Source: Pirellulaceae bacterium (GTDB taxonomy: Bacteria; Planctomycetota; Planctomycetia; Pirellulales; Pirellulaceae). Taken from it: DNA of 64,000 bases. The stretch covers positions 6,926 to 70,925 of the forward strand of contig JANRMD010000115.1 of the NCBI GenBank assembly GCA_033761895.1. Direction: 5' to 3'. The notes under the pieces are model-generated. The model worked only from the letters and a program-made list of their open reading frames with translations, ran no database searches and was not told the origin of the DNA. This document shows positions 3,793 through 32,324 of the stretch, piece after piece. The translations under genes were made by a program, and so were the position numbers. Every line of letters begins with the position of its first letter. The first letter of the stretch is position 1.

Positions 3793-4958
3793 GTGCGTGG
3801 CACACACCACTTCGCATCAAAGCCAACCTTCTCTGCTTCGCCGCCACGCAACTTGTCCAAGTCACTGATCAGCTGTGAAACACGCTCGGGACGATTGATG
3901 CCTTCCAATCGCACATGGAACTCAACGGACTTGCCAGCGGCTAGCGGCACCACACGGCCTTGCTTTTCTTCAAATGTTCTCGGGTTGGGAAAGCCCGTTC
4001 CGGGTTCAAGTCCCGTGACATAACCATCTGCCGCGCCGACGGTATTCTTCCACTGGGAGAAATAGGGCAGCGTGTCAGGCCTATAGTGGACCGCGAATCC
4101 ACGACTGCGATTCTTGGAAGCCAGTAATGCCGTCGCCCAGCCATCGGTACCGGCGGTCGGCGATGAAAAGTAAACTTGCTCGACGTAACCGGGTGTCGGT
4201 GGCAAATAGGTGGGCCAAGTTGCCAGATCATCCGCCGCATGTTGATCGCGAGCCACGATTCGCTTGGCAGCGCTTTGCATGGTGGCTCCGCCCTCAAGCA
4301 GCGGCGAACCGACGTTGACGTGATACAGCATTTGGATCGTTGTGGCGGTGTCCGATGCATTCTTGACGGAGTCGACCACATCAATGGTCGGTTGGCCGAA
4401 CGCAAACCGATAATTGACCGTCATTCGCAGATTGAATTGTAGGAAGCGGGCCTCATGTACCTCGCCGCGAACCTCTAGCAACGAATGATCGGCATCGAGG
4501 TGCACCGACCAGTTGACGGCGGGTTGGTTGGCGATTCGGCCGTGGAGCGGATGTTTGAGCTGCCCTTTGTCGTTGAAGTCCGGAGCGCCGAAACTCTGCA
4601 AGCCGCATCTGACCAGCAACTCGTCAAAGCCGTCCAACCAACCGAGTCCGTTCGAATCGGTGATGGGTACGTATTGCGGGTGAATCGGCCCTTCGACTGG
4701 CGAACGCCAACTGCAATCGAGCCCATCGATGTTGGCTTTCCACAAACCCAGTCCGCGGGTCGGACAAATAGCGGCCCGAACTTTCCCGCTATCGACCACC
4801 ACCAGTTCCACACCCTCTCGTTTTCCCGAGGCAAATCGATATCGCTGAACCGCAAAGGTGCCACCCGCCGATTTGGCTCGCGTCGCGGTATCTGGAAGCG
4901 ATTGGGCAAGGTCGACCGGTTGTTCAATCAGTAACGGTTGAGCAAGTTCGATTTTCAT
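3789..4958 (-). CDS. Aldose 1-epimerase family protein (DUF4432-like)
   Basis: PTRGLG, GWLDGF, LHGRIAN, MLYHVN and TGLEPGT motifs typical of the galactose mutarotase-like DUF4432 family. Confidence 0.8.
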   Translation of the reverse strand: MKIELAQPLLIEQPVDLAQSLPDTATRAKSAGGTFAVQRYRFASGKREGVELVVVDSGKVRAAICPTRGLGLWKANIDGLDCSWRSPVEGPIHPQYVPITDSNGLGWLDGFDELLVRCGLQSFGAPDFNDKGQLKHPLHGRIANQPAVNWSVHLDADHSLLEVRGEVHEARFLQFNLRMTVNYRFAFGQPTIDVVDSVKNASDTATTIQMLYHVNVGSPLLEGGATMQSAAKRIVARDQHAADDLATWPTYLPPTPGYVEQVYFSSPTAGTDGWATALLASKNRSRGFAVHYRPDTLPYFSQWKNTVGAADGYVTGLEPGTGFPNPRTFEEKQGRVVPLAAGKSVEFHVRLEGINRPERVSQLISDLDKLRGGEAEKVGFDAKWCVPRT

Positions 4959-9145: not shown

Positions 9146-9482
9146 ATGCCAGAACTCCCAGGCATACTGCTTTACCTTCGAGCACTTGAGCAACGGCTAC
9201 TTGGCGAGCGGATTGAATCGATTTCAGTCCGCTCGCCATCGCTTTTACGGACTTACTCACCTCAACTTGAGTCTGTCGTCCAACAACGCATAACAGCCAT
9301 CTCGCGCAGCGGCAAACGCATCCTCTGGACACTCGATTCCGGAATCTGTTTGGTATTTCATTTGATGATCGCTGGTCAACTACTGCCCACGTTGCCAAAC
9401 CGAAGGCAGAATCCTCGCGGATCGCTCGCTCAGTCGACTGCTCAAAGACGATTGGCCGAGGTCGCTCGATGAACTCGAGTGA
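9146..9482 (+). pseudogene. Fpg/Nei-family DNA glycosylase pseudogene with internal deletion and frameshift
   Basis: The frame from 9146 reads MPELP...SGKRI...FHLMIAG (Fpg N-terminus). From 9378 a different frame reads [34 protein letters not shown] (zinc-finger C-terminus). The H2TH middle region is absent. Confidence 0.85.
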
Positions 9483-9490
9483 AGCATGCG

Positions 9491-12454
9491 TCATTGCCCA
9501 GGCGTCTTCAGGTCCTCGATGATGGTAGTGATCTTGTTCTTGACTGAGGTGGAGGTCTCTGGAGACGCTACGGACATGATCTTCTGATTGACCGCTCTAC
9601 CTAATTGCTGTTGTAACGAAGCGAGTTCGGAGAGTTCCTGCCAGCGTTGCTTGGGAGCATCCGAGCTGGCGGCTGCTTCTTGTTCGGCCAGTTCTTTAGC
9701 TGCTGTGTATAGACCAGATCGCAACAGCAAGTTGAAGGCCATGCCTGCTGGTACGGGTGCTGTTGAGTACTTACCTTCTTTGACTCGCCATTGGTAGATG
9801 ATCGGCATCACTTGCGTCAACTGTTCTTGATCAACCGGTTTCTCGGCGGAGATGGATTCCAAGACTAGGGAAGCGAGTGCGCACCATGCTGCGGAGCGTT
9901 GCAAATCGGCGAAGATCACATCCGCTTGGGCCGCTTGGCTGAAGTACTTGTAGGTTTGTGCCCAATCGGGATCACCAAACCGTTGTAAACCAACGATGTA
10001 GTTGAGAAGTTGGTGGTCGGGGATGATCTCATGGATGCGTTTCAGTGGTTTGTCGAGAGATGTAAACCCAGTTTCGATGGAGAGCAATTCCACAGCACCT
10101 GGAATCGCTTTGTATAGTTCGCCCATCCACGCAAATTGCTGCGGCACCATTGGGCTATTCTCGCCGTACTTCCGGGAGATCAGTATCCCCAAGGAATGCA
10201 TGATCTTCAGGAACTCAATCGTCGTCAGTGGGAACATTTGACCGTCGTCGGTTGACTGCATCGCGTTTTCGAAACTGGTGTACAGTTCTCCAATCGCATC
10301 AATCATTTCAACTTCTGCTTCGTAGCCGCCTTGTTTGCGAAGTGGATTGAGGGCTGTCGCGGCTTCGTCTTTATGGCCACACATCGCCAGCGAAAGTGCC
10401 TTCAGAAAGGCGAATCGAATATCGTTGGGGAACAGCCGCAGACCAAGATCAGCATCGTCGATCGCTTGTTGGACTCGCCCGACAATTGCGCAGGTAATCC
10501 CTCTTCTCGCCAGGGCATTGGAGTTGTAAGCGTCCGCCTCCAGGCAGTCGCCATAGAGTCGGATGCTATCGTCGGCTGATTTGGCAATTAGGGCAGCAGC
10601 GTAGGCCGCGTCGGACCGCGAAAGTTGGTTACTAGCCAGTGCCTGTTGAATCAGCTTATTACCGCTTGCATCTCGTTTGGTCATCAGCAGCATGTCGCCA
10701 AACAGTAGGTCGAACTGAGACTGTTCGGCTTCTGCGAGTTGTGTACGGTCAAGCTTTTCTGCTTCGGCGATGGCGGCCTGCATATCCTCTGAGAAGTAAA
10801 GGTCACGCACCAGCAGCAGCGACTGGGAACTGGTCATCATAAACTCGGGGTTGGTTTGCAGAGTGCGCATCGACTTCGCCGCTTCGCGATATTGTCCACG
10901 GCTGCGCGCAAGATTGGCTGAGCTAAGAAGTATCGCTTGATTGCTTTCTTGCAATTTGGAGTTGGCTTCTCGTTGTTCAACCAGCAGCTTCCGTTCGCTT
11001 TCAGCGCGTTTTTGTTCCCGAACGAACAGCACGCCCAGCAGAACCATGGCGATCATCGATCCCACACCGATGGATGAGCTAACCGCCTGATGTTGACGGA
11101 TCCAGCGGCCCGCCTTTGCGCTTAGCGGTTCCTGCATGGCGTCAATGGCCTGATCATCTAACCATCGCTGCACATCATCGCGTAGTTCTCGGACCGAACG
11201 GTAACGCTCAGAACTTTCGTTCTTAAGTGCCTTCTTGCAGATAAATGCCAGTTGCTTTGGTATGTCGTTGCGGGCATCTCTTGGACTGTGGTTTTGCAAA
11301 TCGGCAATTTGTTTCAGAGCACGGTCGATGTTCCGCGTCGACTCAATCGGCGGTTTGCCGACTAGCACATGGTACAAAGTTGCCCCTAGGCTATAGACAT
11401 CCGAAGCAGGCACCATGCGATCGAGTTCACCGCGCAGTTGCTCGGGAGGCGCGTAAACGATAGTGCCCACGACGCTGCCATGACGCGTTGCAGAATCCCA
11501 GTCGTCGCTTTGGATTGTCGGTTCTTGGAGGCCAGGCAGGCTTGAATCGGATACCGACACGGGGCTGGTCGGAAGCGGTTTGGCTAGTCCCCAGTCGACG
11601 ACCAGGGTTTCACCGTGATTGCCAAGCATAATATTGTCAGGTTTGAGATCCCGATGGAGGACTCCGCGTTCGTGCGCATACTCCACGGCATTGCAAACAT
11701 CGATAAATCGCCGTAGCAGTTGCCGCAATTCGGGCGAATCAAAAGTCGTCTTGCTTGATTTCAGATTGTGGTGGAAAGATTCGATTCTCTTGCTTAAGCT
11801 CTCGCCGCGAATAAATCGCATCGCATAGAAGGGACGACCAAAGCCGTCGGTGCCAAGCGCATAAATGGGGACGATCCCAGGATGCTCAAGCTGCCCGGTT
11901 AACTCCGCCTCGCGTTGAAATTTTTGGCGGTAAATGGCTTCGTCAGCTTTGTCGTCGCGAATTTGCTTCAGTGCAACTTGCCGACGCAATTGATCATCCT
12001 GTGCCTTGTAGACGATACCAAGACCACCACGGGCTACTTCATTGACAATCGAGAATCGCTCCATCGTCGAGTGTCCAGCGGCGGTTGGCTTTTTGCTAGA
12101 ACCCAAAGGAACTGTGTCGAGGCTATGACGAGTCGCGTCGAGAGTCTTGGAAAGAACCGTTCGCTCGACTCCCTCACTCTTGGCGACTTCAAAGAGCTGA
12201 TCACAGAGTTCGGCGACTGATGGCAGATTGGCAATCGATGCTTCATCGCTGCCAAACTTGCCCTGTAAACGTTCGACGAGCGTTATGAGCAGATCGTGAT
12301 CCTGCTGCGAAAGATAACCCTCCGCGACTAGAATGCCACCGAGGCTCGACGAAGGATTCTTGCTCCATTGTGAAAAGGCTTTGAGCAGTTGGTCGCGTTT
12401 GACGAACTCGTTCAGAAAAGCCAACAAGCCAAACAATAGGTTCTGTGACAGCAT
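9491..12454 (-). CDS. Ser/Thr protein kinase (Hanks type) with TM and C-terminal TPR-like region
   Basis: ARGGLGIVY, VALKQI, HRDLKPDNIML, DWGLAK and SDVYSLG motifs; TM SIGVGSMIAMVLLGVLF; helical Ala-rich repeats. Confidence 0.92.
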   Translation of the reverse strand: MLSQNLLFGLLAFLNEFVKRDQLLKAFSQWSKNPSSSLGGILVAEGYLSQQDHDLLITLVERLQGKFGSDEASIANLPSVAELCDQLFEVAKSEGVERTVLSKTLDATRHSLDTVPLGSSKKPTAAGHSTMERFSIVNEVARGGLGIVYKAQDDQLRRQVALKQIRDDKADEAIYRQKFQREAELTGQLEHPGIVPIYALGTDGFGRPFYAMRFIRGESLSKRIESFHHNLKSSKTTFDSPELRQLLRRFIDVCNAVEYAHERGVLHRDLKPDNIMLGNHGETLVVDWGLAKPLPTSPVSVSDSSLPGLQEPTIQSDDWDSATRHGSVVGTIVYAPPEQLRGELDRMVPASDVYSLGATLYHVLVGKPPIESTRNIDRALKQIADLQNHSPRDARNDIPKQLAFICKKALKNESSERYRSVRELRDDVQRWLDDQAIDAMQEPLSAKAGRWIRQHQAVSSSIGVGSMIAMVLLGVLFVREQKRAESERKLLVEQREANSKLQESNQAILLSSANLARSRGQYREAAKSMRTLQTNPEFMMTSSQSLLLVRDLYFSEDMQAAIAEAEKLDRTQLAEAEQSQFDLLFGDMLLMTKRDASGNKLIQQALASNQLSRSDAAYAAALIAKSADDSIRLYGDCLEADAYNSNALARRGITCAIVGRVQQAIDDADLGLRLFPNDIRFAFLKALSLAMCGHKDEAATALNPLRKQGGYEAEVEMIDAIGELYTSFENAMQSTDDGQMFPLTTIEFLKIMHSLGILISRKYGENSPMVPQQFAWMGELYKAIPGAVELLSIETGFTSLDKPLKRIHEIIPDHQLLNYIVGLQRFGDPDWAQTYKYFSQAAQADVIFADLQRSAAWCALASLVLESISAEKPVDQEQLTQVMPIIYQWRVKEGKYSTAPVPAGMAFNLLLRSGLYTAAKELAEQEAAASSDAPKQRWQELSELASLQQQLGRAVNQKIMSVASPETSTSVKNKITTIIEDLKTPGQ

Positions 12455-21542: not shown

Positions 21543-22370
21543 ATGCGTTCCAAGTTCTTGCCGATAGGCGTTGTGCTGCTGTTATTCTTCACCTGTGCTT
21601 GCATAGCGTTGTATTGGCTCCTGCGCGAACCGCGTGACCACATAGGCTTCTTGTTTGGGGCGCTTTACGGTCACAGCACTTTATCCTCAGGCTGGATGGT
21701 ATTTGGACCAGGCAAATGGCCTAGGTATCCCTTGGCTTTCGTATGGCTGATCGCTATCCCCTCCGCATTTATCCTTAATAGTCTGTTCTCTGCAAATCTG
21801 CCCGCCTCAGGTTTCTTGTGGTTGAGCGCGGGCTTCATATTTGTGTTGGTGCAAGTACTCGCATGGCCAATGCGATATTGGTGGCGGCTAAGAATCTGCC
21901 GTACAGCTCAAGCCACGCAAGCCAACGGGGAGACGGTACTTTCTCATCAGTTCGGGATTCGCGAATTGATGATCTTAACCACCGTCGTTGCGATTTTCCT
22001 CGCTGGTGGTCCATTGCTGTTGCCATTGCTGCGAGCGTTTCTCGGTTCAGGTGAGTTCGCGGTTTTTGCGTTCCTCGTAGTTGCTTCGGTGGTTATCTGT
22101 ATTCCAACAATCTTCTCAATTCTTGCGATGCGAAAGCCCATCGTTCCGACTCTGATTCTGTTCGTATTCGTAACGATTGCCACTTATATTGAATTGCCGC
22201 TGCTTTCGAGTCTAGGTTTTCCGCGAGGCGGACCAGATCGACTTCACTTGATACTGATCAATGTTTTTTCGTTATTACCGATCGTTATTGTGTGCAGCAT
22301 GCTGCGAGTCGCTGGCTACCAACTCTCCAGCAATCGCAATCAACCGCAAGGATCGGTGGCTAACAGCTAG
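21543..22370 (+). CDS. Multi-pass membrane protein (QFGIRELM...TTVVA / GY(R/Q)L family)
   Basis: About 8 hydrophobic segments; shares motifs with the ORFs at 43642 and 62650. Confidence 0.75.
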   Translation: MRSKFLPIGVVLLLFFTCACIALYWLLREPRDHIGFLFGALYGHSTLSSGWMVFGPGKWPRYPLAFVWLIAIPSAFILNSLFSANLPASGFLWLSAGFIFVLVQVLAWPMRYWWRLRICRTAQATQANGETVLSHQFGIRELMILTTVVAIFLAGGPLLLPLLRAFLGSGEFAVFAFLVVASVVICIPTIFSILAMRKPIVPTLILFVFVTIATYIELPLLSSLGFPRGGPDRLHLILINVFSLLPIVIVCSMLRVAGYQLSSNRNQPQGSVANS

Positions 22371-22382
22371 TATGTCGCTATA

Positions 22383-22647
22383 GACGATTGCCACAAAAGA
22401 ACACAGAGGACGCAAAAAGAGTGACGCAATTGGATCCAGCTCTACGACTATCTATCGAAGCCCTTGGGCATTGCTTTTGTGTCCTTTGCGTTTTTTCGCG
22501 GCCATCGTTGCGCTAGGTAGCGACGATTGCCACGAAAAGAACGCAGAGAACACAAAAAGAGTGGCGCAATTGGATCCGGCTCTGCGACTATCTATCGAAG
22601 CTCGTGGGCCTTGCCTTTGTGCCCTTTGCGTTCTTTCGTGGCAATCG
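22383..22647. repeat. Two tandem ~125-bp hairpin elements (period 139 bp)
   Basis: Copies at 22383-22508 and 22522-22647. Each starts GACGATTGCCAC(A/G)AAAGAAC(A/G)CAGAG and ends in an imperfect reverse complement (...CTTTGCGTT(T/C)TTTCG(C/T)GGC(C/A)ATCG). The internal sequence is also shared. Confidence 0.85.
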
Positions 22648-22824
22648 CCGGACGGGAACGGTAGGTAACTCTCGCAATGAGACAAACCGGTGCCAGATGA
22701 AGTGACGTAATCTATGGTATCTATGCTTGTTTCGCGTTTACAGCAGTTAACAATTAACTAGTCGTTTTGAGAGTCGCGAACCAAAGAGAAACTCAATGTT
22801 TTAGAAAGTGAGGGATAGATTGCT

Positions 22825-23202
22825 ATGCAGACGATTAAGGAGCTCTGTGACTTCGTTCGGGAAACGTCCTACAAGATACACCTCTACCATGGCCACGGCC
22901 ATCTGGAAAAGGTCTATGAAAACGCCCTAGTTCATCGCATGCGAAAAGCTGGATTCGACGTAGAGCAGCAGCATCCATTGACCGTTTTTGACGAAGATGG
23001 AACGGTAATCGGCGAATATTATGCAGACCTTTTCATCGACGGGCGTTTGATTGTGGAATTGAAGGCCGTGCGGGCCGTTGCTGATGAGCACATAGCGCAG
23101 ATTCTGGGGTACTTGAAGGCGTCACGTTTCGAACATGGGTTGTTAGTGAACTTTGGTTCGCCGCGTTTCTGGATTAAGAAGTACATCCTAACGCAACAGT
23201 GA
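22825..23202 (+). CDS. GxxExxY protein (PD-(D/E)XK nuclease-like fold)
   Basis: GHLEKVYENAL fits GxxExxY; also YYADLFIDGRLIVELKAV and GLLVNFG. Confidence 0.9.
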   Translation: MQTIKELCDFVRETSYKIHLYHGHGHLEKVYENALVHRMRKAGFDVEQQHPLTVFDEDGTVIGEYYADLFIDGRLIVELKAVRAVADEHIAQILGYLKASRFEHGLLVNFGSPRFWIKKYILTQQ

Positions 23203-23326
23203 AGTGGCAAGTGTAAGCCTCTCCAAAGTTTGCGCCAAAAAGGACGAGACAAGTGGTCCCGTGGCACGATGTCACATTGTGTATAATGAGCGTCTTCCTT
23301 TCACATCCCACCCCCGGAGTTTCGCG

Positions 23327-24814
23327 ATGACTCAGCCTATTTGTTCTCCCAAAGTAACTGAATCCATTGAATTGAATCGTCGTAAATTGCTGGTTGCGGG
23401 TGGTGCAGGTGCTGCTCTGCTGATGACTGGGCGGAAGGCCTCAGCGCGAGTGATCGGAGCCAATGACCGCTTGCGGATTGCTGTAGCGGGCCTTAACGGT
23501 CGAGGGCAAAGTCATATCGATGGCTGGCTGAAACAGGAGAATGTTGAGATCGCGTGGGTGATCGATCCCGATGAGCGTGCGCTGGCGCGTGGAATCAAGA
23601 TCGTGCAAGAAAAGTCAGGTGGCAAATCCAACCCGCAAGGTGTTGCGGATGTTCGACGTGCACTTGAAGACAAAACGTTGGACGCGATTTCGATTGCGAC
23701 CCCTAATCACTGGCATTCGCTGATGACAATTTGGGGTGCTCAGGCGGGCAAGCATGTCTATGTCGAGAAACCGATGAGTCACGATGTGGCTGAGGGCCGC
23801 ATTGCGATGGAGGCGCAGAAGAAATACGGAGTGGTTGTGCAGCACGGCACTCAAAGTCGTAGTAGCGCTGAGATCGCTGGATTGCACGCAGCTATCCACG
23901 CTGGAAAATTCGGTAAGCTGAAAATCTCGTATGGTTACTGCTGCAAGGAACGCGGTAGCATCGGCACTAAACCCATTAGTGAACCGCCAAGTAACCTTGA
24001 CTGGAATTTGTGGCGTGGCCCGGCAGATGTGAAGGAGTTTCACGCGAACTATGTGCATTACAACTGGCACTGGTTTTGGAAGACTGGCAACGGCGACTTG
24101 AATAATCAAGGTACGCATCAACTCGATATTGCGCGATGGGCCATAGCGCCCGATCAAACACATCCGGTGCGCGCGATGGCGATTGGTGGCCGCTTTATGT
24201 GGAATGACCAAGGCGAAACGCCCAACACGATGTTTGGTATCGCTGAGTACCCAAATGGTCAGCAAGTCTTCTTCAATGTCCGCAATATCAACTACGATGG
24301 CTACAAACGCCAAGTTGAGAACGAATACTACTTTGAAGATGGTGGCCGCATCGTCGGTGGAAAGTACTTCGCGAAAGGGAGTAACTCAGGCGAGAAGGTG
24401 AACGTTGAACCTGGCAAAGTCACACCGGGCGGAAATTGGGGTGCGTTCATTGCCGCTTGTCGCGCGGGTGATCCGATGATGGCTAATGGCAATGCAGCGG
24501 ACGCCCACTATGGTTGCGTGCTTGGACACTTAATCAACAATTCGTATCGATTAGGAACCGAAGTGCCTTTCAACGCCAAGGCTGGACGTTTTGGCGACAA
24601 TGCGGATGCCGCGGAGCACTTTGGACGCTTGCATGCGATCATGGCGGATGGGGTGGGGGTTCCCGTAGATGGTTCTAAGTACGTCGTTGGACCTTGGTTA
24701 ACGTTCGATCCAACCACAGAAAGGCACACCGGCGACCATGCCGAAGCCGCCAATGCACTGCTGAAGGACGAAAACCGAGCGGGGTTCGAGATTCCATCAA
24801 TGGCGAAAGTTTAA
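23327..24814 (+). CDS. Gfo/Idh/MocA family oxidoreductase with Tat signal peptide
   Basis: LNRRKLL Tat motif; IAVAGLNGRG; HVYVEKPMSH; NQGTHQLD. Start placed at ATG 23327 rather than the longer ORF-track start. Confidence 0.9.
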   Translation: MTQPICSPKVTESIELNRRKLLVAGGAGAALLMTGRKASARVIGANDRLRIAVAGLNGRGQSHIDGWLKQENVEIAWVIDPDERALARGIKIVQEKSGGKSNPQGVADVRRALEDKTLDAISIATPNHWHSLMTIWGAQAGKHVYVEKPMSHDVAEGRIAMEAQKKYGVVVQHGTQSRSSAEIAGLHAAIHAGKFGKLKISYGYCCKERGSIGTKPISEPPSNLDWNLWRGPADVKEFHANYVHYNWHWFWKTGNGDLNNQGTHQLDIARWAIAPDQTHPVRAMAIGGRFMWNDQGETPNTMFGIAEYPNGQQVFFNVRNINYDGYKRQVENEYYFEDGGRIVGGKYFAKGSNSGEKVNVEPGKVTPGGNWGAFIAACRAGDPMMANGNAADAHYGCVLGHLINNSYRLGTEVPFNAKAGRFGDNADAAEHFGRLHAIMADGVGVPVDGSKYVVGPWLTFDPTTERHTGDHAEAANALLKDENRAGFEIPSMAKV

Positions 24815-24931
24815 TCCAAAGGTGGCAGAGATTTGCTTGCGGTGGGAGAGCTGGACAGGTTGGGATATAATCCAACGTAACCGAACACGGTTAAGCACCC
24901 GCTTCCCGCCCGCAGATTGCGAAAGCCCCCA

Positions 24932-26107
24932 ATGGAAAAAGTGGATTTTGAACATCGGACGCGTCTCGTCTTTGGCTCTGGCGAGATCGCTCGCCTAGGT
25001 GCAATCGCCCGCGAACTCGGTGGCCGTCGTGCGCTTGTGGTAAGTGACCCGGGGGTCGTCACGGCGGGGCATTTTGGTCGCGGAGTCGCAGCTCTGGAAG
25101 CGGCTGGTTTAGAAGTTGCCGCTTTTCATGGCGTAAAAGAGAATCCATCCACTGCGGAAGTTGCCGCCGGACTCGAAGTCGCACGCCAGTTCCAACCCGA
25201 CCTGCTGATCGGATTGGGTGGCGGAAGTTCGATGGACTGCGCCAAAGGTATCAACTTCCTCTACAGTTGCGGTGGTCGCATGGAGGACTATTGGGGTGTT
25301 GGCAAAGCGACTGCAGATATGCTGCCCATGATCGCTGTTCCTACAACCGCTGGCACTGGCAGTGAAGCGCAATCATTTGCACTGATCAGTCAAGTCGACA
25401 CGCATACCAAGATGGCTTGTGGTGACCGACGCGCCGCCTGTCGCGTTGCGTTGCTCGACCCCGAGTTAACTGTGACTCAGCCGCCGCGCGTTACTGCCCT
25501 AACAGGCGTCGATGCTATTTCGCATGCACTCGAGTCCTACGTTACTCTTCGTCGCAACCCGCTGAGCATCTGTTACAGTCGTCAAGCCTGGCAGTTGCTC
25601 AGCCATGGCTTTCCTGCCGTGCTCGATAATCCGACCGATCTCGAAGCTCGGGGGCAGGTCCAGCTAGGTGCTTTCTTCGCCGGATTAGCGATTGAAACAA
25701 GTATGCTCGGCGCGGCGCACGCGCTTGCCAACCCACTGACGGCACAGTTCAATGTAACTCATGGACAAGCGGTTGGTTTGATGCTGCCCCATGTGGTGCG
25801 ATTCAATGCATCGCGTTCGTCAGCTGTCCACAGTTGGTACACGGAGCTGTGGCGCGATGTGGCTCACTCGAGTTTGGGCAAGTCAGTCGCTCAGCGCGAT
25901 CCGATCGACTCATTAGCCATCTATGTGCAAAACCTCGCATCCCGCGCGGGGTTACATACGGAGCTCGCGAGTTGCGGGGTGACGGCCAAAGATGTGTCTA
26001 AGTTGGCGGTAGACGCAACCAAGCAATGGACGGGCAATTTCAACCCGTGTCCGTTGCAAGAAGGCGATTTTCGGCAATTGTACATTGAAGCCCTTGGTAA
26101 TCCTTAA
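24932..26107 (+). CDS. Iron-containing alcohol dehydrogenase
   Basis: GLGGGSSMDCAK, PTTAGTGSE, and metal ligands D(AISH)...H(ALAN)...H(GQA). Confidence 0.92.
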   Translation: MEKVDFEHRTRLVFGSGEIARLGAIARELGGRRALVVSDPGVVTAGHFGRGVAALEAAGLEVAAFHGVKENPSTAEVAAGLEVARQFQPDLLIGLGGGSSMDCAKGINFLYSCGGRMEDYWGVGKATADMLPMIAVPTTAGTGSEAQSFALISQVDTHTKMACGDRRAACRVALLDPELTVTQPPRVTALTGVDAISHALESYVTLRRNPLSICYSRQAWQLLSHGFPAVLDNPTDLEARGQVQLGAFFAGLAIETSMLGAAHALANPLTAQFNVTHGQAVGLMLPHVVRFNASRSSAVHSWYTELWRDVAHSSLGKSVAQRDPIDSLAIYVQNLASRAGLHTELASCGVTAKDVSKLAVDATKQWTGNFNPCPLQEGDFRQLYIEALGNP

Positions 26108-26124
26108 AACCGGAGAGTTCACCA

Positions 26125-27321
26125 ATGCCCAGAAACATTGCGCCCAGAAACATAGCGCCCAGAAAAATAGTGCCCAACGTAGTTTTGCGTGGAAACAATG
26201 TTATGCGGACTATAACCGGCCTTATTTCCGGTGCCCTGTGCGCGGCTACATGCATGGTACCTCTGTTTGCGGACAGCTGGCCGTTTGGTCGCGGCGACTC
26301 CGCTGGAACCGGCGCGACCAAAGTCGAATTGCCAGAAAAGCTCGGCCTGATGTGGGAGCTAAAGCTCGGTGGAATCGGATTCGAATCGACACCCATTATC
26401 GCTGACAACACCATTTTCATCGGCGATCCCGATGGCCGATTCTTCGCGATCGATGCGACCACTGGGCAAGAGAAATGGCGCAAGGAATACGAAACGGGCT
26501 TCGTCGCTTCGGCGGCCTATATCGACAGCATGATCTACATCGGCGACTACGATGGTGTGCTGCGAGCGATGGAGGCGGCAACGGGCAAAGAGGTTTGGAC
26601 TTTCAAAGCTGAGATGCAAATCGATGCCAGCCCAACCGCTTATGGCGACAATCTTCTTGTAACCTCCGAAGACGGAACACTGTATTGCGTGAAACGCGCC
26701 AACGGTGAATTGGTCTGGAAGTATGAGACCGGCGACCAGTTACGTTGCGGTGCTTCACTGGCCGGCGATCGGACTTATCTCGGCGGTTGCGACGGCAAAC
26801 TGCACGTGGTCGATGTGACTCAAGGCAAAGCCATCGGCGAACCGATTCCCCTGGACGGACCAACCGGCAGTACTCCCAGCGTGGCGGGCAACAACGTGTT
26901 TGTACCCACGCATGGTGGAAAGCTGTTTGCATTCGATGCCGAGACCAGCAAAGAAGCTTGGCAGTTTTTTGACCCCAAATTGGCCCAAGAGTTTCAAAAC
27001 AACGTTGCCACAGCGGACAATTTGGTTGTGGCCACCAGTCGCAACAAGCATGTCTTTGCAATCGATGCAACGACCGGCAAAGTTGTGTGGGATATCGTTC
27101 TTCGCAAACGCGCGGATGGCTCTCCAGTGATCGCTGGTGATAGTGTGGTTGTTGCCGCCGCCGATGGTCGATTGATTGTTCTGGACCTCAAGACAGGCAA
27201 CGAAAATTGGCTTTACGAAATCAAGGGTGGCTTTATCGGATCACCAGCCATCGCGGACGGCAAGATTGTGGTCGCTTCCGACAAAGGGACCGTGTTTTGC
27301 TTCGGCGCGGATTTGCGTTAG
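26125..27321 (+). CDS. PQQ-binding-like (BamB-like) beta-propeller repeat protein, exported
   Basis: Repeated AIDATTG(Q/K)xxW-type blades; signal-like segment ending LFA-DSWP. The start is 26125 (RBS GGAGAG) or 26203. Confidence 0.88.
   Translation: MPRNIAPRNIAPRKIVPNVVLRGNNVMRTITGLISGALCAATCMVPLFADSWPFGRGDSAGTGATKVELPEKLGLMWELKLGGIGFESTPIIADNTIFIGDPDGRFFAIDATTGQEKWRKEYETGFVASAAYIDSMIYIGDYDGVLRAMEAATGKEVWTFKAEMQIDASPTAYGDNLLVTSEDGTLYCVKRANGELVWKYETGDQLRCGASLAGDRTYLGGCDGKLHVVDVTQGKAIGEPIPLDGPTGSTPSVAGNNVFVPTHGGKLFAFDAETSKEAWQFFDPKLAQEFQNNVATADNLVVATSRNKHVFAIDATTGKVVWDIVLRKRADGSPVIAGDSVVVAAADGRLIVLDLKTGNENWLYEIKGGFIGSPAIADGKIVVASDKGTVFCFGADLR
26127..26175 (+). repeat. 15-bp tandem repeat x3 (GCCCAGAAACATTGC) at the 5' end of the beta-propeller gene
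   Basis: Units start at 26127, 26142 and 26157, with a partial unit at 26172. They encode PRNIA/PRNIA/PRKIV. Confidence 0.75.
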
Positions 27322-27379
27322 ACTGGACCTACAAGCCCTGAACGTTTTCCGCCAACCCAAAAACACCAAGCAAAGACCC

Positions 27380-28699
27380 ATGGCAGAAGCAACAAAAACC
27401 GAGGTTGGCAGTTATTTCATCTCCAACTATCCACCGTTTTCTCAGTGGAAAGCGGAGAATTTGCCACAAATCGAAGCCGCGCTGAACCAACCACCGCGCG
27501 TGCAAGCGGATGGAACTCCTACTCCGCTCGGTTTGTATCTACACATCCCTTTTTGCCGTAAGCGTTGCAAGTTTTGCTACTTCAAAGTCTTTACGAACGT
27601 CAACGCCGATGAGATTGAGCGTTACGTTCAGGCGCTTTGTCGCGAAATCGAATTGGTTAGCGAACTGCCGGTGATGGGCGAGCGCCCATTCCGCTTTGTG
27701 TATTTCGGTGGAGGCACGCCGAGCTTTCTCTCACCGAAGCAACTGACCAGTCTGGTCGATCGGCTCCGCGCGAGCATCAGCTGGGATAAAGCGGAGGAAG
27801 TCACGTTCGAATGCGAGCCCGGTACACTCAGCGAAACGAAGGTCAAAACTCTCCGTGAACTTGGTGTCACTCGACTGAGTCTGGGCGTTGAGAACTTTAG
27901 CGATGCTATTCTGGAAGAGAACGGTCGAGCTCACTTGTCGAAAGAGGTTCACCGCGCGTGGCAATGGATCGTCGATGCTAACTTCCATAACGTTAACATC
28001 GACTTGATTTCCGGTATGGTCGGCGAGACGTGGGATAACTGGAAAGAGAACGTTACGAAGACGCTGGAGCTCTCACCGGAAAGCATTACGATTTACCAGA
28101 TGGAGTTGCCCTTTAACACGGTGTATTCCAAAGGTATTCTCAATGAACAGCAAGAATCGCCGGTTGCCGATTGGCAGACCAAACGCGATTGGGTTCAGTA
28201 CGCCTTCGAGGCGTTCGCTGCCGCTGGATACGCACAAAGCAGCGCGTACACCATGATCAAGGATCCCAAGAAAGTCAGCTTCAGTTATCGCGACAACCTT
28301 TGGAAAGGCTCGGACTTACTGGCTACCGGTATTGCATCCTTTGGGCATGTGAGTGGAGTGCATTATCAAAACCTGCCCGAATGGCCGCAGTACCTCGGCG
28401 CGCTCGAAGCTGGCAAGTTGCCACTCGGCCGGGCCTTCACACCGACCCAACATCAGTCGATGGTTCGCGAATTAATCCTGTTGTTAAAGCGTGGTTACCT
28501 CGACATCGATTACTTCCAGAACAAGTTTGGGGTAAACGTGTGGGACGAGTACCAAGAGATTTGGCAACAGTACATCGAAGACGGCTACGCAGTGCATGAT
28601 GGGAACCGCATCGAATTGACCATGCAGGGGCTGCTTCGGGCCGACGGATTGCTGCCTCCGTTCTTTGAACCGGAGCATCGTGGGGTTCGCTACACATGA
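27380..28699 (+). CDS. HemN-like (coproporphyrinogen III oxidase family) radical SAM protein
   Basis: LYLHIPFCRKRCKFC (CxxxCxxC), YFGGGTPS, RLSLGVENF and NIDLISGM. Start placed at ATG 27380. Confidence 0.88.
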   Translation: MAEATKTEVGSYFISNYPPFSQWKAENLPQIEAALNQPPRVQADGTPTPLGLYLHIPFCRKRCKFCYFKVFTNVNADEIERYVQALCREIELVSELPVMGERPFRFVYFGGGTPSFLSPKQLTSLVDRLRASISWDKAEEVTFECEPGTLSETKVKTLRELGVTRLSLGVENFSDAILEENGRAHLSKEVHRAWQWIVDANFHNVNIDLISGMVGETWDNWKENVTKTLELSPESITIYQMELPFNTVYSKGILNEQQESPVADWQTKRDWVQYAFEAFAAAGYAQSSAYTMIKDPKKVSFSYRDNLWKGSDLLATGIASFGHVSGVHYQNLPEWPQYLGALEAGKLPLGRAFTPTQHQSMVRELILLLKRGYLDIDYFQNKFGVNVWDEYQEIWQQYIEDGYAVHDGNRIELTMQGLLRADGLLPPFFEPEHRGVRYT

Positions 28700-29157
28700 C
28701 CGCAGAACTAGTGTTCATGATGGGTAGTTTTGAAGCTCGCTTTCCAACCGATCGACTTTACGCCAAGAACCACATGTGGGCTGAGCAGCGCGAGCCATCG
28801 GTGTATCGCTGTGGGCTGACGGCCTATGCGGTTCGCTTGCTTCAAGATGTGTACTTTTTGGATCTTGTTGTAGAAGCGGACATGCCCGTGAAACTGCGGC
28901 AAGAAATTGGTTCCATCGAGAGCAAAAAAGCCGAGAGCAGTCTGTACAGTCCGCTTGCAGGGACGATTACCTGCGTTAATGATCAATTGCTGCAAGATCC
29001 GACCTCGATCAATTTGGATAAATACGGCGCGGGCTGGTTCTTTGAAGTGAAAAGTGACGACGCAACACTGCTGAGTCCAACGGAATACATCGAGCATCTG
29101 AAGGCCGCTTGGGAGGTTGCCCAGCGGACAATTAAGGGACAAGCCAATGCTGAATAG
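28696..29157 (+). CDS. Glycine cleavage H-protein-like lipoyl carrier
   Basis: YAKNHMW, GSIESKKAESSLYSPLAG (lipoyl-Lys position retained) and INLDKYGAGWF. ATGA overlap with the radical SAM gene. Confidence 0.85.
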   Translation: MTAELVFMMGSFEARFPTDRLYAKNHMWAEQREPSVYRCGLTAYAVRLLQDVYFLDLVVEADMPVKLRQEIGSIESKKAESSLYSPLAGTITCVNDQLLQDPTSINLDKYGAGWFFEVKSDDATLLSPTEYIEHLKAAWEVAQRTIKGQANAE

Positions 29158-30229
29158 CGAATTGACGATTGTGATCTCACAAGGGCAGAGCCGAAGTCCC
29201 GATAAACGTGACTTGGAGCAAGCGATCGCCGATGGCGCCGCACAGCTGAACGGTGTGCGCGTGCTCAAAGTTCCTCACCTCTACGATTTGCCCAAAGATA
29301 GTGAAACTTACAAAACCCTGCGAGCCTTAGAGGGTGACTTGATTGTCTTGTCCTGGTTGTTTGATCGAGCCACCCACTGGACGCTTGACCGACAGGGCGT
29401 GCGTGGCCAAGTTGGTGAGGTACTACTCAAGCAAGAGCATGATGACGAGGAAGAGGAATCGGCCGAACCCGAAGATTTAGAGCGAGTTACCGATAGCCAA
29501 CCGCGTTCGAATCGCAAAATTTATTGCATCGATTTCCGCGCTAGCCAAAAGGCCACAGACTTCATCGAAGAATTCGAGCGAATCATCGCTGACCGACAAT
29601 CCAATTGGTTAAAGGGCGAAGCCACCAGCGAACAGATGGCTCGTTTCGAGCAACCGACGAACAACACCTACGTCGGAGCACCATCGATTGGAACACCTGC
29701 CGTTCCAGCGGAATCTGCGATAAGTGTTTTGTTCGGTACAAATTCTGTGGCCACTATCGACGAGCATCCCGGTCGGCGTTGGTACCCAGTGATCGATTTC
29801 AGTCGATGCACAAATTGCATGGAGTGCATCGATTTTTGTTTGTTTGGGGTCTATGGCGTCGATACGGTAGAAACGATCGTTGTCGAGCAACCGGATAATT
29901 GTCGAAAGGGTTGCCCGGCCTGCAGTCGTGTTTGTCCACAGAATGCGATCATCTTTCCGCAGCATAAAACGCCCGCGATCGCCGGGGCTCCAGTTGATAC
30001 CGGTGGCATGAAGATCGATTTATCCAAGTTATTCGGTGCACCCGATGAGGGCGAAGACGCCATCGCAGTCGCAGCTCGCGAGCGGGACGAGCAACTGATC
30101 CTGGCCGGCCGTCAGGCAGTTGGGCTTTCCGAGGGCATTAGTGATCGCTTGGCCAAGCAATCTGAGGCATCCAAGAAACATGACGAGTTGGACGACTTGA
30201 TCGACCAGCTCGACTCGTTGGACCTGTAA
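29147..30229 (+). CDS. 2x[4Fe-4S] ferredoxin-domain protein with uncharacterised N-terminal domain
   Basis: CTNCMECIDFC and CRKGCPACSRVCP motifs; acidic linker; 11-bp overlap with the upstream gene. Confidence 0.82.
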   Translation: MLNSELTIVISQGQSRSPDKRDLEQAIADGAAQLNGVRVLKVPHLYDLPKDSETYKTLRALEGDLIVLSWLFDRATHWTLDRQGVRGQVGEVLLKQEHDDEEEESAEPEDLERVTDSQPRSNRKIYCIDFRASQKATDFIEEFERIIADRQSNWLKGEATSEQMARFEQPTNNTYVGAPSIGTPAVPAESAISVLFGTNSVATIDEHPGRRWYPVIDFSRCTNCMECIDFCLFGVYGVDTVETIVVEQPDNCRKGCPACSRVCPQNAIIFPQHKTPAIAGAPVDTGGMKIDLSKLFGAPDEGEDAIAVAARERDEQLILAGRQAVGLSEGISDRLAKQSEASKKHDELDDLIDQLDSLDL

Positions 30230-30274
30230 ACGCTGTGAGGACGCAAATCGACTATCTCAGCAGCCTGCAAGTGA

Positions 30275-31069
30275 TTAACCCAGTGCTGCGATTAACTCTT
30301 GGGCCAGTTGCTCTACTCCGGCGAGGGCCAGTTCAGGGTCGGCAACTTCGGCAAATCGGCGAACGATGGCTGAGCCGACGATCAACCCATCGGCGACTGG
30401 GGCCAGCAGCTTCACATGCTCGGGGCGGCTGATGCCGAAGCCGATGCAGATTGGAATCTCAACCCGTTCTCGCAGCCAAGAGACTTTTTCAAGCAAACCC
30501 GGTGGCAGTTCATTGCGTTCACCGGTGATGCCTGTAATCGAAACGAAGTACACAAACCCGCTCGACAGCTCCGCGATTCGCAGCATACGCTCTGGGGTGG
30601 TGGTTGGGGTGACCAAGTGAATTAAGCTGAAGTCTTCGCGCCGACAGATTTTTCGTAAATCGTCAGCTTCTTCAGCCAACAGGTCGGGCACGATGGCGCC
30701 TGAGAAACCTGCGGCACGCGCGTCCGCCACATAGCGCTCCATCCCCATACGGTGAATCACTGCATAGCTGACCATTGACACGAGGGGCATCTGTAGTCTT
30801 GGGGTCACTTCGCGGACTGTGTCGAAGATATCCTTCAGTTTGATACCGGCGTTCAGGGCACGGGTGTAGGAAGCTTGGATTACAGGTCCATCTGCAATTG
30901 GGTCGCTATAGGGAATTCCAACTTCAGCGATCGCACTTCCGCATGCAGACAGTTTTTCGAGCAACCGCGCGGTCATCGGCAATGAGGGATCGCCTGCCGT
31001 TACGAATGGCAAGAACGCTTTCTTGCCGGTGCTGCGAAGTTGTTTAAATCGATCATCGATAGCGGACAT
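30275..31069 (-). CDS. trpA: Tryptophan synthase alpha chain
   Basis: PFVTAGDP, EVGIPYSDPIADGPVIQ, SITGITG and IGFGIS motifs. Confidence 0.97.
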   Translation of the reverse strand: MSAIDDRFKQLRSTGKKAFLPFVTAGDPSLPMTARLLEKLSACGSAIAEVGIPYSDPIADGPVIQASYTRALNAGIKLKDIFDTVREVTPRLQMPLVSMVSYAVIHRMGMERYVADARAAGFSGAIVPDLLAEEADDLRKICRREDFSLIHLVTPTTTPERMLRIAELSSGFVYFVSITGITGERNELPPGLLEKVSWLRERVEIPICIGFGISRPEHVKLLAPVADGLIVGSAIVRRFAEVADPELALAGVEQLAQELIAALG

Positions 31070-31109
31070 GAGGTGAGGTTTCTAGGTCTAAGTGGCATAA
31101 GCTTGGGGG

Positions 31110-32324
31110 CTAGTATTCTAATCCGCGAAGGCGAGCGATTTCGGCAGCATCCTTATCGCCGCGGCCGCTTAGGCAGACCAAGACAATCTTGTCTCGACTC
31201 AGCGTGGCGGCGACTTCCATGGCTTTGGAGATACCATGCGAGGATTCGAGAGCGGGCAGGATACCCTCCATTTTCGCAACTTTGTCGAATGTCTCGAGGG
31301 CAGCACCATCGCGGCAGTAGCTGTATTCGACGCGACCATTGTCTTTCCAGTAACTATGTTCTGGACCAACGCCGGGGTAATCCAAACCTGCCGAAATCGA
31401 ATGTACGGGAGACGTTTGACCATCTTCGTCTTGCATCACATAGCTATAACTGCCGTGCAGCACACCGGGCATGCCAAACGACAGGGGCGAAGCGTGTTCG
31501 CCAGCTTTGCTGGACAGTCCACCCGCTTCGACACCGATCAACTTGACCTCGTCATCATCGACAAACGGGTAGAACATACCGGCTGCATTGGATCCGCCGC
31601 CAACGCATGCGATGACCGTGTCGGGCAAACGATTGAAGACCTCTAGGCTTTGCTGTCGAGCTTCGCGGCCGATCACGGATTGAAAATCGCGGACCATCAT
31701 CGGAAATGGATGGGGGCCGATGACCGAACCAATGATGTAGTGGGTTGTTTCAACCGAAGACATCCAGTCTCGCATGGCTTCGTTTACGGCGTCGCGCAGC
31801 GTTTGCGAACCGCTGGTGACGGGCCGTACTTCCGTGCCCATCAGTCGCATGCTGAAGACGTTGGGGCGTTGGCGTCGCACATCTTCGGCACCCATATAGA
31901 CCACGCAGGGCAGTCCAAAGTGGGCACAAGCGGTCGCGCTGGCGACGCCATGCTGTCCAGCGCCCGTCTCGGCGATCACCCGCTTCTTGCCCATTCGCAA
32001 TGTCAGCAACGCTTGGCCGAGTGTGTTATTGATCTTGTGTGCACCGGTATGATTTAGGTCTTCACGCTTGAACCAAATCTGTGCGCCACCGGCGAGGTCG
32101 CTTAAGCGTTTGGCGTGGTACAAAGGCGAAGGGCGACCCACAAAAGTCTTCAGCAGATGATCCAACTCCGCCTTGAATTTTGGGTCCTTTTGAGCTGATG
32201 CGTATTCGGCTTCCAGTTCAACGAGTGCCCGCGTCAGTGTTTCGGGTACAAAGCGACCACCGAATTCGCCGAAGCGACCGCGTTGGTCAGGTACTTGGCT
32301 GAGCGTCTTGTCTGCAACAGTCAT
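31110..32324 (-). CDS. trpB: Tryptophan synthase beta chain
   Basis: [32 protein letters not shown] and LSGRGDKD motifs. Confidence 0.98.

Follow-up and report, generated by a model that had tools for sequence, protein, structure and literature searches.

We describe here a five-gene operon of a Pirellulaceae bacterium, found in a 64,000-nucleotide stretch of its genome (NCBI GenBank assembly GCA_033761895.1, contig JANRMD010000115.1, positions 6,926 to 70,925; henceforth referred to as the window), in which a HemN-like radical S-adenosylmethionine (SAM) enzyme is coupled to a protein resembling the H-protein of glycine cleavage. The other three genes encode an iron-type alcohol dehydrogenase (Fe-ADH), a beta-propeller and a protein with a 2x[4Fe-4S] ferredoxin domain. 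The original prediction, made from the sequence of the window, took these genes for an undescribed system, and this holds: the operon is conserved in Pirellulaceae, and we found no matching description in the literature searched. Elsewhere in the phylum Planctomycetota its genes belong to two larger, uncharacterised gene modules, both of them conserved there. We consider the chances about evenly balanced that the operon and both modules form one undescribed pathway, yielding an isoprenoid-derived product and using the H-protein-like carrier as a relay.

The genome assembly (8.7 Mb in 654 contigs, the window being part of contig C115) has its nearest named relatives among Pirellulaceae such as Aureliella. 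The five open reading frames (ORFs) all lie on the plus strand and span 24917/24932-30229 (Table 1). Seventeen bp separate the Fe-ADH gene from the propeller gene, and 58 bp separate the stop codon of the latter (TAG, 27319-27321) from the ATG of the radical SAM gene at 27380. The stop of the radical SAM gene and the start of the carrier gene share the ATGA at 28696-28699 (junction sequence ...TACACATGACC). Finally, the carrier gene ends in GAATAG at 29157 and the ferredoxin-domain gene begins with the ATG at 29147, a start backed by the alignment of 33 orthologs, which gives an overlap of 11 bp. The gene structure shows translational coupling, and the number of genes, both gaps and both overlaps are exactly as originally claimed. 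The same is true of three motifs, all found in the translations: ESKKA with its lysine in the carrier, and SNYPPF near the N-terminus and GVRYT at the C-terminus of the radical SAM enzyme. None of the five proteins reaches a curated NCBIfam equivalog cut-off.

Table 1. Genes of the operon and of its upstream flank, in positions of the window.
Gene product	Position	Strand	Basis or remark
Fe-ADH (iron-type alcohol dehydrogenase)	24932..26107	+	Pfam; ATG inside a TTG ORF beginning at 24917
BamB-like PQQ_2-repeat beta-propeller	26125..27321	+	Pfam; alternative start Met27 at 26203
HemN-like radical SAM enzyme, distinct Planctomycetota family	27380..28699	+	Radical_SAM + HemN_C
H-protein-like (lipoyl-carrier-type) protein, second copy	28696..29157	+	GCV_H, model, tree
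Two-domain 2x[4Fe-4S] ferredoxin-domain protein	29147..30229	+	Eight invariant cysteines
GFO/IDH/MocA oxidoreductase	23204-24814	+	Directly upstream of the operon; twin-arginine-like N-terminal segment NRRKLLVAGGAGAALLM
PD-(D/E)XK_3 (GxxExxY-type) nuclease-fold gene	22825-23202	+	104 bits

The radical SAM protein matches Radical_SAM with 73.8 bits and HemN_C with 25.4 bits (cut-off 24), a combination that indicates membership of the HemN-like superfamily only. Its scores remain below the cut-offs for HemN (TIGR00538, 173.2 vs 324.95 bits), HemW (TIGR00539, 165.9 vs 205.4 bits) and ChuW/HutW (TIGR04107, 196.5 vs 400 bits), and the neighbourhoods of the gene that were examined showed none for heme utilisation. 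The genome encodes four HemN_C proteins. Two of these, on contigs C360 and C149, exceed the HemW cut-off with 286.6 and 254.3 bits, and another, on C570, is divergent. In an alignment with Escherichia coli HemN (PDB 1olt), the cluster cysteines, Tyr56, His58, GGGTP and Glu145 fall into register and GVQDF is replaced by GVENF. The cluster motif, CRKRCKFCYF, has a phenylalanine where HemN has its fourth cysteine, Cys71. The N-terminus reads GSYFISNYPPF, and both the translation and this alignment bear out that SNYPPF stands where HemN has its GPRYTSYP-type segment, which is absent. Matches among PDB sequences were HemN itself (1olt, E=6.6e-28) and NocN (9p2u, E=2.9e-26), the similarity to NocN being confined to the core (residues 49-242). 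Ten full-length relatives at 29-33% identity included no bona fide HemN, and four of them lay barely over the HemW cut-off. That the enzyme misses every one of these cut-offs while two paralogs of the same genome pass that for HemW agrees with the earlier view that it is no genuine member of either family; nor does it cluster with HemN or HemW by these scores and its neighbours in sequence space. Judged from these scores and alignments, it is a HemN-like enzyme of a distinct Planctomycetota family and not a heme enzyme.

Several paralogs were also noted. The divergent fourth HemN_C protein of the window genome (C570:~3067-4215, minus strand, 464 aa) carries Cx6CxxC in its cluster region (HPFCNPKISGCGFCTF) in place of CxxxCxxC, and reaches no NCBIfam equivalog (best STM4012, 97 bits vs a cut-off of 380). 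A paralogous subfamily from other sources is either fused to AMP-binding domains or paired with a flavoprotein. As an example of the former, the HemN-like paralogs of L088 (a JGI metagenome contig) and P0127/P0135, 39-43% identical to the window enzyme, bear a full AMP-binding domain of acyl-CoA ligase type at the N-terminus, and the L088 fusion gene adjoins an aromatic ammonia-lyase fragment. On the metagenome contigs L130/L131, a paralog of 39% identity forms a pair with the halogenase-like flavoprotein described below and a cyclase (PF04199), with a PNPOx-like gene and another radical SAM/ferredoxin block in the vicinity.

The carrier matches the Pfam family GCV_H (78.6 bits) and stays below the gcvH equivalog (TIGR00527, 82.9 vs 115.85 bits). 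A whole-genome GCV_H search recovered the window copy with 78.8 bits and a copy on contig C275 with 121.4 bits, the latter being the canonical gcvH, flanked by gcvT and an LplA/LipB-type gene. That locus (C275:13315-14264, minus strand) reads gcvT-gcvH, then the LplA/LipB-type catalytic-domain gene (266 aa), then an FHA-domain gene, with no gcvP next to it. A lipA gene lies on C269 and a further LipB/LplA-type gene on C333, so that the genome has two genes of this type. The original prediction saw no gcvT, gcvP, lpd or lipoate ligase in the window; the operon indeed has no gcvT, gcvP or lipoate ligase, genes found elsewhere in the genome.

Lys78 of the carrier, the second lysine of IESKKAES, aligns with the lipoyl lysine of H-proteins. 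It does not vary among 26 orthologs, its conservation in a broader set of 121 is 95% or more, and the ortholog alignment also reveals conserved N- and C-terminal extensions. In the AlphaFold model (pLDDT 92.4) Lys78 is found in a hairpin turn between strands 70-76 and 80-84, and the best Foldseek match of this model is the H-protein of Thermus thermophilus (1onl; TM-score 0.87, root mean square deviation 1.5 Å, 36% identity). Given the H-protein fold and the lysine in the hairpin turn, the carrier looks like a competent swinging-arm protein, with a modification that is predicted only. A tree of 44 sequences resolved three well-supported groups: canonical GcvH (support 100/98), carriers linked to a GTPase gene, and the clade of the window carrier (96/93), with members from families f1, f2, f58 and f92. 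The GTPase-linked carriers and the window clade take the same position in their gene clusters and were not seen together in any one genome. Alignments, model, tree and the separate canonical gcvH beside gcvT on C275 all speak for a dedicated paralog that has kept its lysine, much as the original prediction had it.

The fifth protein consists of an N-terminal alpha/beta domain (~1-150), an acidic linker, a 2x[4Fe-4S] domain (~210-270) and a conserved acidic C-terminal tail. Eight cluster cysteines, C221/224/227/231 and C252/256/259/263, are invariant in 33 orthologs and form the motifs CxxCxxCxxxC (221-231) and CxxxCxxCxxxCP (252-264); several Fer4 dicluster models of Pfam score at or just under threshold. 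The N-terminal domain was modelled with confidence as an alpha/beta fold. Homology to the flavodoxin-like WrbA was considered and not accepted (best PDB match only E=0.013, TM-score 0.16-0.29), and on the strength of the model we regard this as a novel alpha/beta domain. It was detected in 137 proteins of a set of 5.8 billion; the 120 matches listed all share the architecture of the window protein, and every taxon-named one among them is from a planctomycete. One representative, P0455 (430 aa, from a contig of 411 kb of a planctomycete metagenome-assembled genome), combines a truncated GCV_H (21-108) and a 2x[4Fe-4S] domain (358-414) in a single polypeptide. This is either a natural carrier-ferredoxin fusion or the outcome of a frameshift across the 11-bp overlap or another artefact.

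As for the first two genes, the Fe-ADH scores above the gathering threshold with both PF00465 (164.6 bits) and ADH_Fe_C (118.5 bits), and could not be assigned a substrate-specific equivalog (best NCBIfam model ErcA, 281 bits vs a cut-off of 550). Its link to the radical SAM enzyme, already proposed in the original prediction, gains independent support from the phylum, since in ~25 of 42 Planctomycetota loci an Fe-ADH gene precedes the radical SAM ortholog, either directly or with one propeller gene in between, and one public protein (P0122) is an Fe-ADH fused to a radical SAM domain. The propeller matches PQQ_2 (175.9 bits) and falls below the cut-offs for BamB (176.4 vs 285.2 bits) and for pyrroloquinoline quinone (PQQ) alcohol dehydrogenase (104.4 vs 480 bits); by these matches it is a PQQ_2-repeat protein only, and PQQ binding is not implied. 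The window propeller has a hydrophobic signal or anchor segment at its N-terminus. Such a stretch precedes the first blade (WP.FRG) in the orthologs of 14 of 15 phylum-wide loci (the 15th, L110, gave no sequence), and the propeller is therefore probably exported or membrane-anchored.

To see how stable this arrangement is we compared loci from 80 Pirellulaceae species, scored by tblastn, with the informative loci as denominators. In 70 of 79 loci the carrier gene comes immediately after the radical SAM gene, ~43 of these keep the 4-nt overlap, and this constancy among different species makes the adjacency more than chance. The same adjacency recurs in two more families, f92 and f86. Radical SAM orthologs are 72-96% identical across Pirellulaceae, an unusually high conservation. 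A propeller gene is present upstream in 52 of 75 loci, the ferredoxin-domain gene nearby in 43 of 74, and an ADH gene upstream in only 18 of 68. The five-gene operon of the original prediction is thus real and conserved, although its full form is found in a minority of loci; the stable core is made up of propeller, radical SAM enzyme and carrier, with or without the ferredoxin-domain protein.

Beyond the family, we used an even sample of 301 Planctomycetota genomes, taking at least 47% identity as the mark of a radical SAM ortholog; neighbouring genes were detected with tblastn and a simple ORF caller, and the co-occurrence figures that follow are raw counts without correction for phylogeny. 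A radical SAM ortholog was present in only 57 of the 301 genomes (42 of 238 genera), so the gene is accessory and not housekeeping. Its surroundings follow a recurrent order, which we call module B and which was seen in at least 20 loci from different families: a sodium:solute symporter (SSS), a short PaaK/LuxE-like adenylating enzyme, an aldehyde dehydrogenase-like protein, the Fe-ADH, the propeller (optional), the HemN-like radical SAM enzyme, a ~180-aa protein without Pfam hit, a Trp-halogenase/CmlS-like flavoprotein (GWFWYIPL, a WxWxIP-type motif), a 4HBT thioesterase, an EamA-like membrane protein and a PaaK/FlxY-like ligase.

The ~180-aa protein of this series is UbiC/DUF98-like by its profile match to PDB 2nwi (E=2.6e-5), which we take to be a DUF98/chorismate-lyase-like protein. 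Its association with the radical SAM enzyme is also seen in P0123, where the latter is fused to a UbiC/DUF98-like domain 41% identical to the free copy (E=1e-32). Apparent fusions of the radical SAM enzyme to the flavoprotein and to the ADH in L106/L107 were dismissed as ORF-extension artefacts after Pfam and reading-frame checks. The window genome has module B partners dispersed over C345, C539, C511/C458, C245 and C233. The idea that the carrier stands in for the UbiC-like gene behind the radical SAM gene was rejected because the window genome and genome G228 hold both.

A second set of genes, module A, accompanies the carrier. Carriers of the window type occur in 22 of the 301 genomes, all 22 with a radical SAM ortholog. 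In families f2 and f58 the carrier-ferredoxin pair is nevertheless megabases away from the radical SAM gene and sits beside terpene genes. Among 12 loci unlinked from the radical SAM gene, the carrier and the long ferredoxin-domain gene are adjacent in 10, an SHC-like class II cyclase gene comes next in four, and three of these also have a DUF116-polyprenyl synthase fusion (DUF116-synthase). Three more genes, each present in two or three unlinked loci, encode a toroid prenyltransferase-fold protein, a CobW/G3E GTPase and a second radical SAM enzyme not of the HemN type. Twelve more loci or genomes combine a carrier of the other, GTPase-linked kind (EGFKA) with a G3E GTPase, in some cases a small ferredoxin, the second radical SAM enzyme, DUF116-synthase, toroid protein and SHC-like cyclase, and the carrier lysine is kept in all 12 GTPase-linked loci. 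The constant partner of the carrier is the ferredoxin-domain protein, and its wider context is a terpene cyclase/polyprenyl synthase cluster.

The two modules meet in several genomes. In G228 (L092), genes for ADH, propeller, radical SAM enzyme, carrier, ferredoxin, SHC-like cyclase, DUF116-synthase and UbiC-like protein are contiguous on one strand. In G200 the carrier module lies next to that of radical SAM, UbiC-like and flavoprotein genes, in divergent orientation. The DUF116-synthase (presence scored at E<=1e-40) was found in 77 of the 301 genomes, namely in 45 of the 57 that have the radical SAM ortholog vs 32 of the 244 that do not. UbiC-like, DUF116-synthase and SHC-like (DADDT motif) genes of the window genome are on C539/C325, and other pathway parts are dispersed (C345, C539/C325, C156, C315, C22, C511, C245). 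An extra physical link between the modules is provided by L150 (G104:C140:~9309-11957), where a GTPase-linked carrier gene divergently adjoins the PaaK/LuxE-like and aldehyde dehydrogenase-like genes of module B.

Around the operon itself, the PD-(D/E)XK and GFO/IDH/MocA genes upstream are retained only in the closest relatives (the oxidoreductase in L007, L009 and L010), for which reason the GFO/IDH/MocA gene is probably outside the unit. On the 3' side and on the opposite strand are trpA, trpB, serA and serC, judged from their translations. A promoter and terminator scan of positions 22000-31500 gave two promoters vs 5.8 expected from shuffled sequence and 11 terminators vs 10.7, i.e. at or near the shuffle level.

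How could these genes work together? The operon would be a Pirellulaceae-specific join between the core of module B (ADH, propeller and radical SAM enzyme) and the carrier-ferredoxin pair of module A. The product would be isoprenoid-derived and probably meroterpenoid-like, with a chorismate-derived aromatic acid joined to, or made beside, a cyclised polyprenyl chain. The HemN-like enzyme may perform SAM radical chemistry on an aromatic or carboxylate intermediate, either methyl or methylene transfer of the class C type or oxidative decarboxylation of the HemN type, and the Fe-ADH may interconvert the alcohol and aldehyde forms of that intermediate. The carrier, presumably lipoylated by the housekeeping LipA and LipB/LplA enzymes, and its ferredoxin partner would form a swinging-arm relay, of redox type or possibly for sulfur, that serves the iron-sulfur and radical enzymes of the pathway, and would not carry the substrate covalently. 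A meroterpenoid-like product is our best guess by analogy, because the SHC-like clade is sister to meroterpenoid cyclases and because there is precedent for the chorismate-lyase-like/halogenase pair (see below).

Several points weigh against the single pathway proposed here. Product, substrate, modification and chemistry are all deduced from gene context. The modules are separable: 12 of the 57 radical SAM-positive genomes are without DUF116-synthase and 32 genomes have the synthase without the radical SAM ortholog. In most Pirellulaceae, the window genome included, the terpene genes lie on contigs other than that of the operon. Each of the two fusions, ADH-radical SAM and carrier-ferredoxin, comes from a single cluster representative and may be assembly or gene-calling artefacts, the UbiC-like label hangs on one weak profile match, and the survey used tblastn and a crude ORF caller, two of whose apparent fusions proved to be ORF artefacts.

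The original prediction favoured a different role for the carrier, with a substrate, or an acyl or lipoyl arm, held covalently on Lys78 and modified there by the HemN-like enzyme while the ferredoxin reduces the SAM cluster. The ATGA overlap kept in ~43 of 70 Pirellulaceae loci, the invariant lysine at the hairpin tip and the radical SAM ortholog in 22 of 22 genomes with the window-type carrier all fit such tethering, as do the LuxE-like adenylating enzyme ('acyl-protein synthetase' type) of the wider cluster and the flavoprotein, whose best matches are halogenases of the CmlS/PltA type; these often act on carrier-bound substrates. Yet 35 of the 57 radical SAM-positive genomes do without a window-type carrier, in families f2 and f58 the pair lies far from the radical SAM gene and next to terpene genes, some genomes that have no radical SAM ortholog (e.g. 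G100, G245) contain the sister kind of carrier, and radical SAM fusions were seen to ADH and UbiC-like domains and none to a carrier. With carrier and HemN-like enzyme each occurring alone, we rank tethering below the relay role and think it rather unlikely. A comparably doubtful alternative is that the two proteins are not direct partners at all, the carrier and ferredoxin feeding electrons, sulfur or clusters to other enzymes of the terpene cluster and the adjacency reflecting shared regulation. In most Planctomycetota the carrier does have other neighbours, namely a G3E GTPase, a small ferredoxin and a radical SAM enzyme of another kind, by DUF116-synthase and cyclase, and the carrier-ferredoxin pair is an invariant unit. 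Against this, the tight translational coupling to the HemN-like gene is kept over the whole family, the adjacency is repeated in families f92 and f86, and the window carrier clade with its long ferredoxin-domain protein was found solely in genomes that have the HemN-like enzyme.

The most conventional explanation would make the radical SAM protein an oxygen-independent coproporphyrinogen oxidase or a heme chaperone, the carrier a spare H-protein of glycine cleavage and the fifth protein a generic ferredoxin. Public labels ('coproporphyrinogen III oxidase family protein', 'glycine cleavage system protein H') say as much, and the fold and core motifs are common with HemN. However, the cut-offs for HemN, HemW, HemZ and HutW are all missed while two paralogs of the same genome pass that for HemW, the fourth cysteine and N-terminal motif of HemN are absent, an ortholog exists in only 57 of the 301 genomes, neither heme nor glycine-cleavage genes were found in the neighbourhoods examined, and the canonical gcvH stands elsewhere with gcvT and belongs to a separate clade. 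On cut-offs, paralog comparison, patchy distribution and context we reject this housekeeping role, to which we attach next to no probability. The most far-reaching proposal is a speculative one that we would expect to fail sooner than succeed: a lipoyl (or other) arm on Lys78, recharged via the two-domain ferredoxin, would serve the HemN-like enzyme with electrons, a hydrogen atom or sulfur, or carry an intermediate, in the making of a cyclic polyprenyl-aromatic compound (a meroterpenoid), and this would be the long-sought product of the 'SHC-like' cyclases of the PVC (Planctomycetes, Verrucomicrobia and Chlamydiae) bacteria.

To establish the relationship of the operon with known systems, we compared it with those that share one or more of its parts. 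The window enzyme has the HemN fold (radical SAM core and HemN_C) of HemN, HemW, ChuW (HutW) and the class C methyltransferases (NosN/NocN, Jaw5, C10P, MenK), and keeps CxxxCxxC and GGGTP. These HemN-type systems have a heme, thiopeptide or polyketide context, in contrast to the ADH, propeller, UbiC-like and flavoprotein context of the window enzyme. To our knowledge no HemN-like member coupled to an H-protein-like gene has been described, and none came up in the literature searched (including searches for HemN with GcvH, for Planctomycetes and for DUF116, the last dominated by DUF1162/VPS13 papers).

H-protein-like carriers outside glycine cleavage are known from LbpA, the GcvH-like lipoate-binding protein of sHdr sulfur oxidation, whose gene lies by iron-sulfur and redox genes. 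The window carrier is likewise GcvH-like, with a conserved lipoyl-type lysine and a neighbouring gene for an iron-sulfur protein, but it is accompanied by other partners, namely the HemN-like enzyme, the novel ferredoxin with its two domains, and terpene genes. The five operon proteins and the annotated recurrent neighbours included nothing Hdr-like and no LipS1/S2 or sLpl(AB), a statement that covers these and not a genome-wide sHdr search, which was not made. Another parallel is GcvH-L of Streptococcus pyogenes (5a35; E=1.3e-5, TM-score 0.84), also a second, specialised H-like paralog in a dedicated operon (SirTM/macrodomain/LplA2). In comparison, the window carrier is closer to the true H-protein 1onl (36% identity vs 20%, TM-score 0.87) and has no sirtuin, macrodomain or dedicated ligase nearby.

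The terpene side of the system leads to the 'SHC-like' cyclases of PVC bacteria, a clade whose function is not known and which is sister to the epoxy-polyprenyl (meroterpenoid) cyclases (PMC12414744). Clusters with 'SHC-like' class II cyclases have been described from PVC, FCB (Fibrobacteres, Chlorobi and Bacteroidetes), Spirochaetota and Acidobacteriota (Santana-Molina et al. 2020, as cited in PMC12414744). Carrier and ferredoxin adjoin cyclases of this kind, with a DxDDT motif, and the DUF116-polyprenyl synthase in families f2, f58 and f92, whereas the window is without terpene genes and has the carrier pair coupled to a HemN-like gene instead. The published work on SHC-like enzymes concerns cyclase phylogeny and not these neighbours.

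For the aromatic part, adjacent chorismate-lyase-like and flavin-halogenase genes (baaA/baaB) have been proposed, without genetic proof, to make 3,5-dibromo-p-anisic acid in Planctomycetales strain 10988 (bioRxiv 10.1101/723874). A gene pair similar by description, not by sequence comparison, is directly 3' of the radical SAM ortholog in many module B loci. In the window genome the two genes are on other contigs, and genes for a radical SAM enzyme, an ADH or a carrier are not reported in the paper (bioRxiv 10.1101/723874). Bacterial meroterpenoid pathways with class II cyclases are represented by MstE of merosterol and Lon15 of longestin biosynthesis (summarised in PMC12414744). As far as that summary goes, the logic of polyprenyl synthase, class II cyclase and benzoate-type head group is alike. 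A difference is the UbiA-type prenyltransferase, none of which was identified in the present analysis. Conversely, we know of no counterpart in the MstE and Lon15 pathways to the radical SAM enzymes, the lipoyl-type carrier or the G3E GTPase.

The HemN-like and H-protein-like families have both repeatedly yielded members of unexpected function, and the conserved, translationally coupled pair described here, not found in the literature searched, is a new partnership between them. A practical consequence is that thousands of 'coproporphyrinogen III oxidase' and 'glycine cleavage system protein H' labels in public databases are probably wrong. For the organisms themselves, the link to the SHC-like cyclases of Planctomycetes and Verrucomicrobia makes the acknowledged question of their substrate and product testable (PMC12414744), with a defined set of genes now available for knockout studies: ADH, propeller, HemN-like enzyme, carrier, ferredoxin, cyclase, DUF116-synthase and UbiC-like protein.

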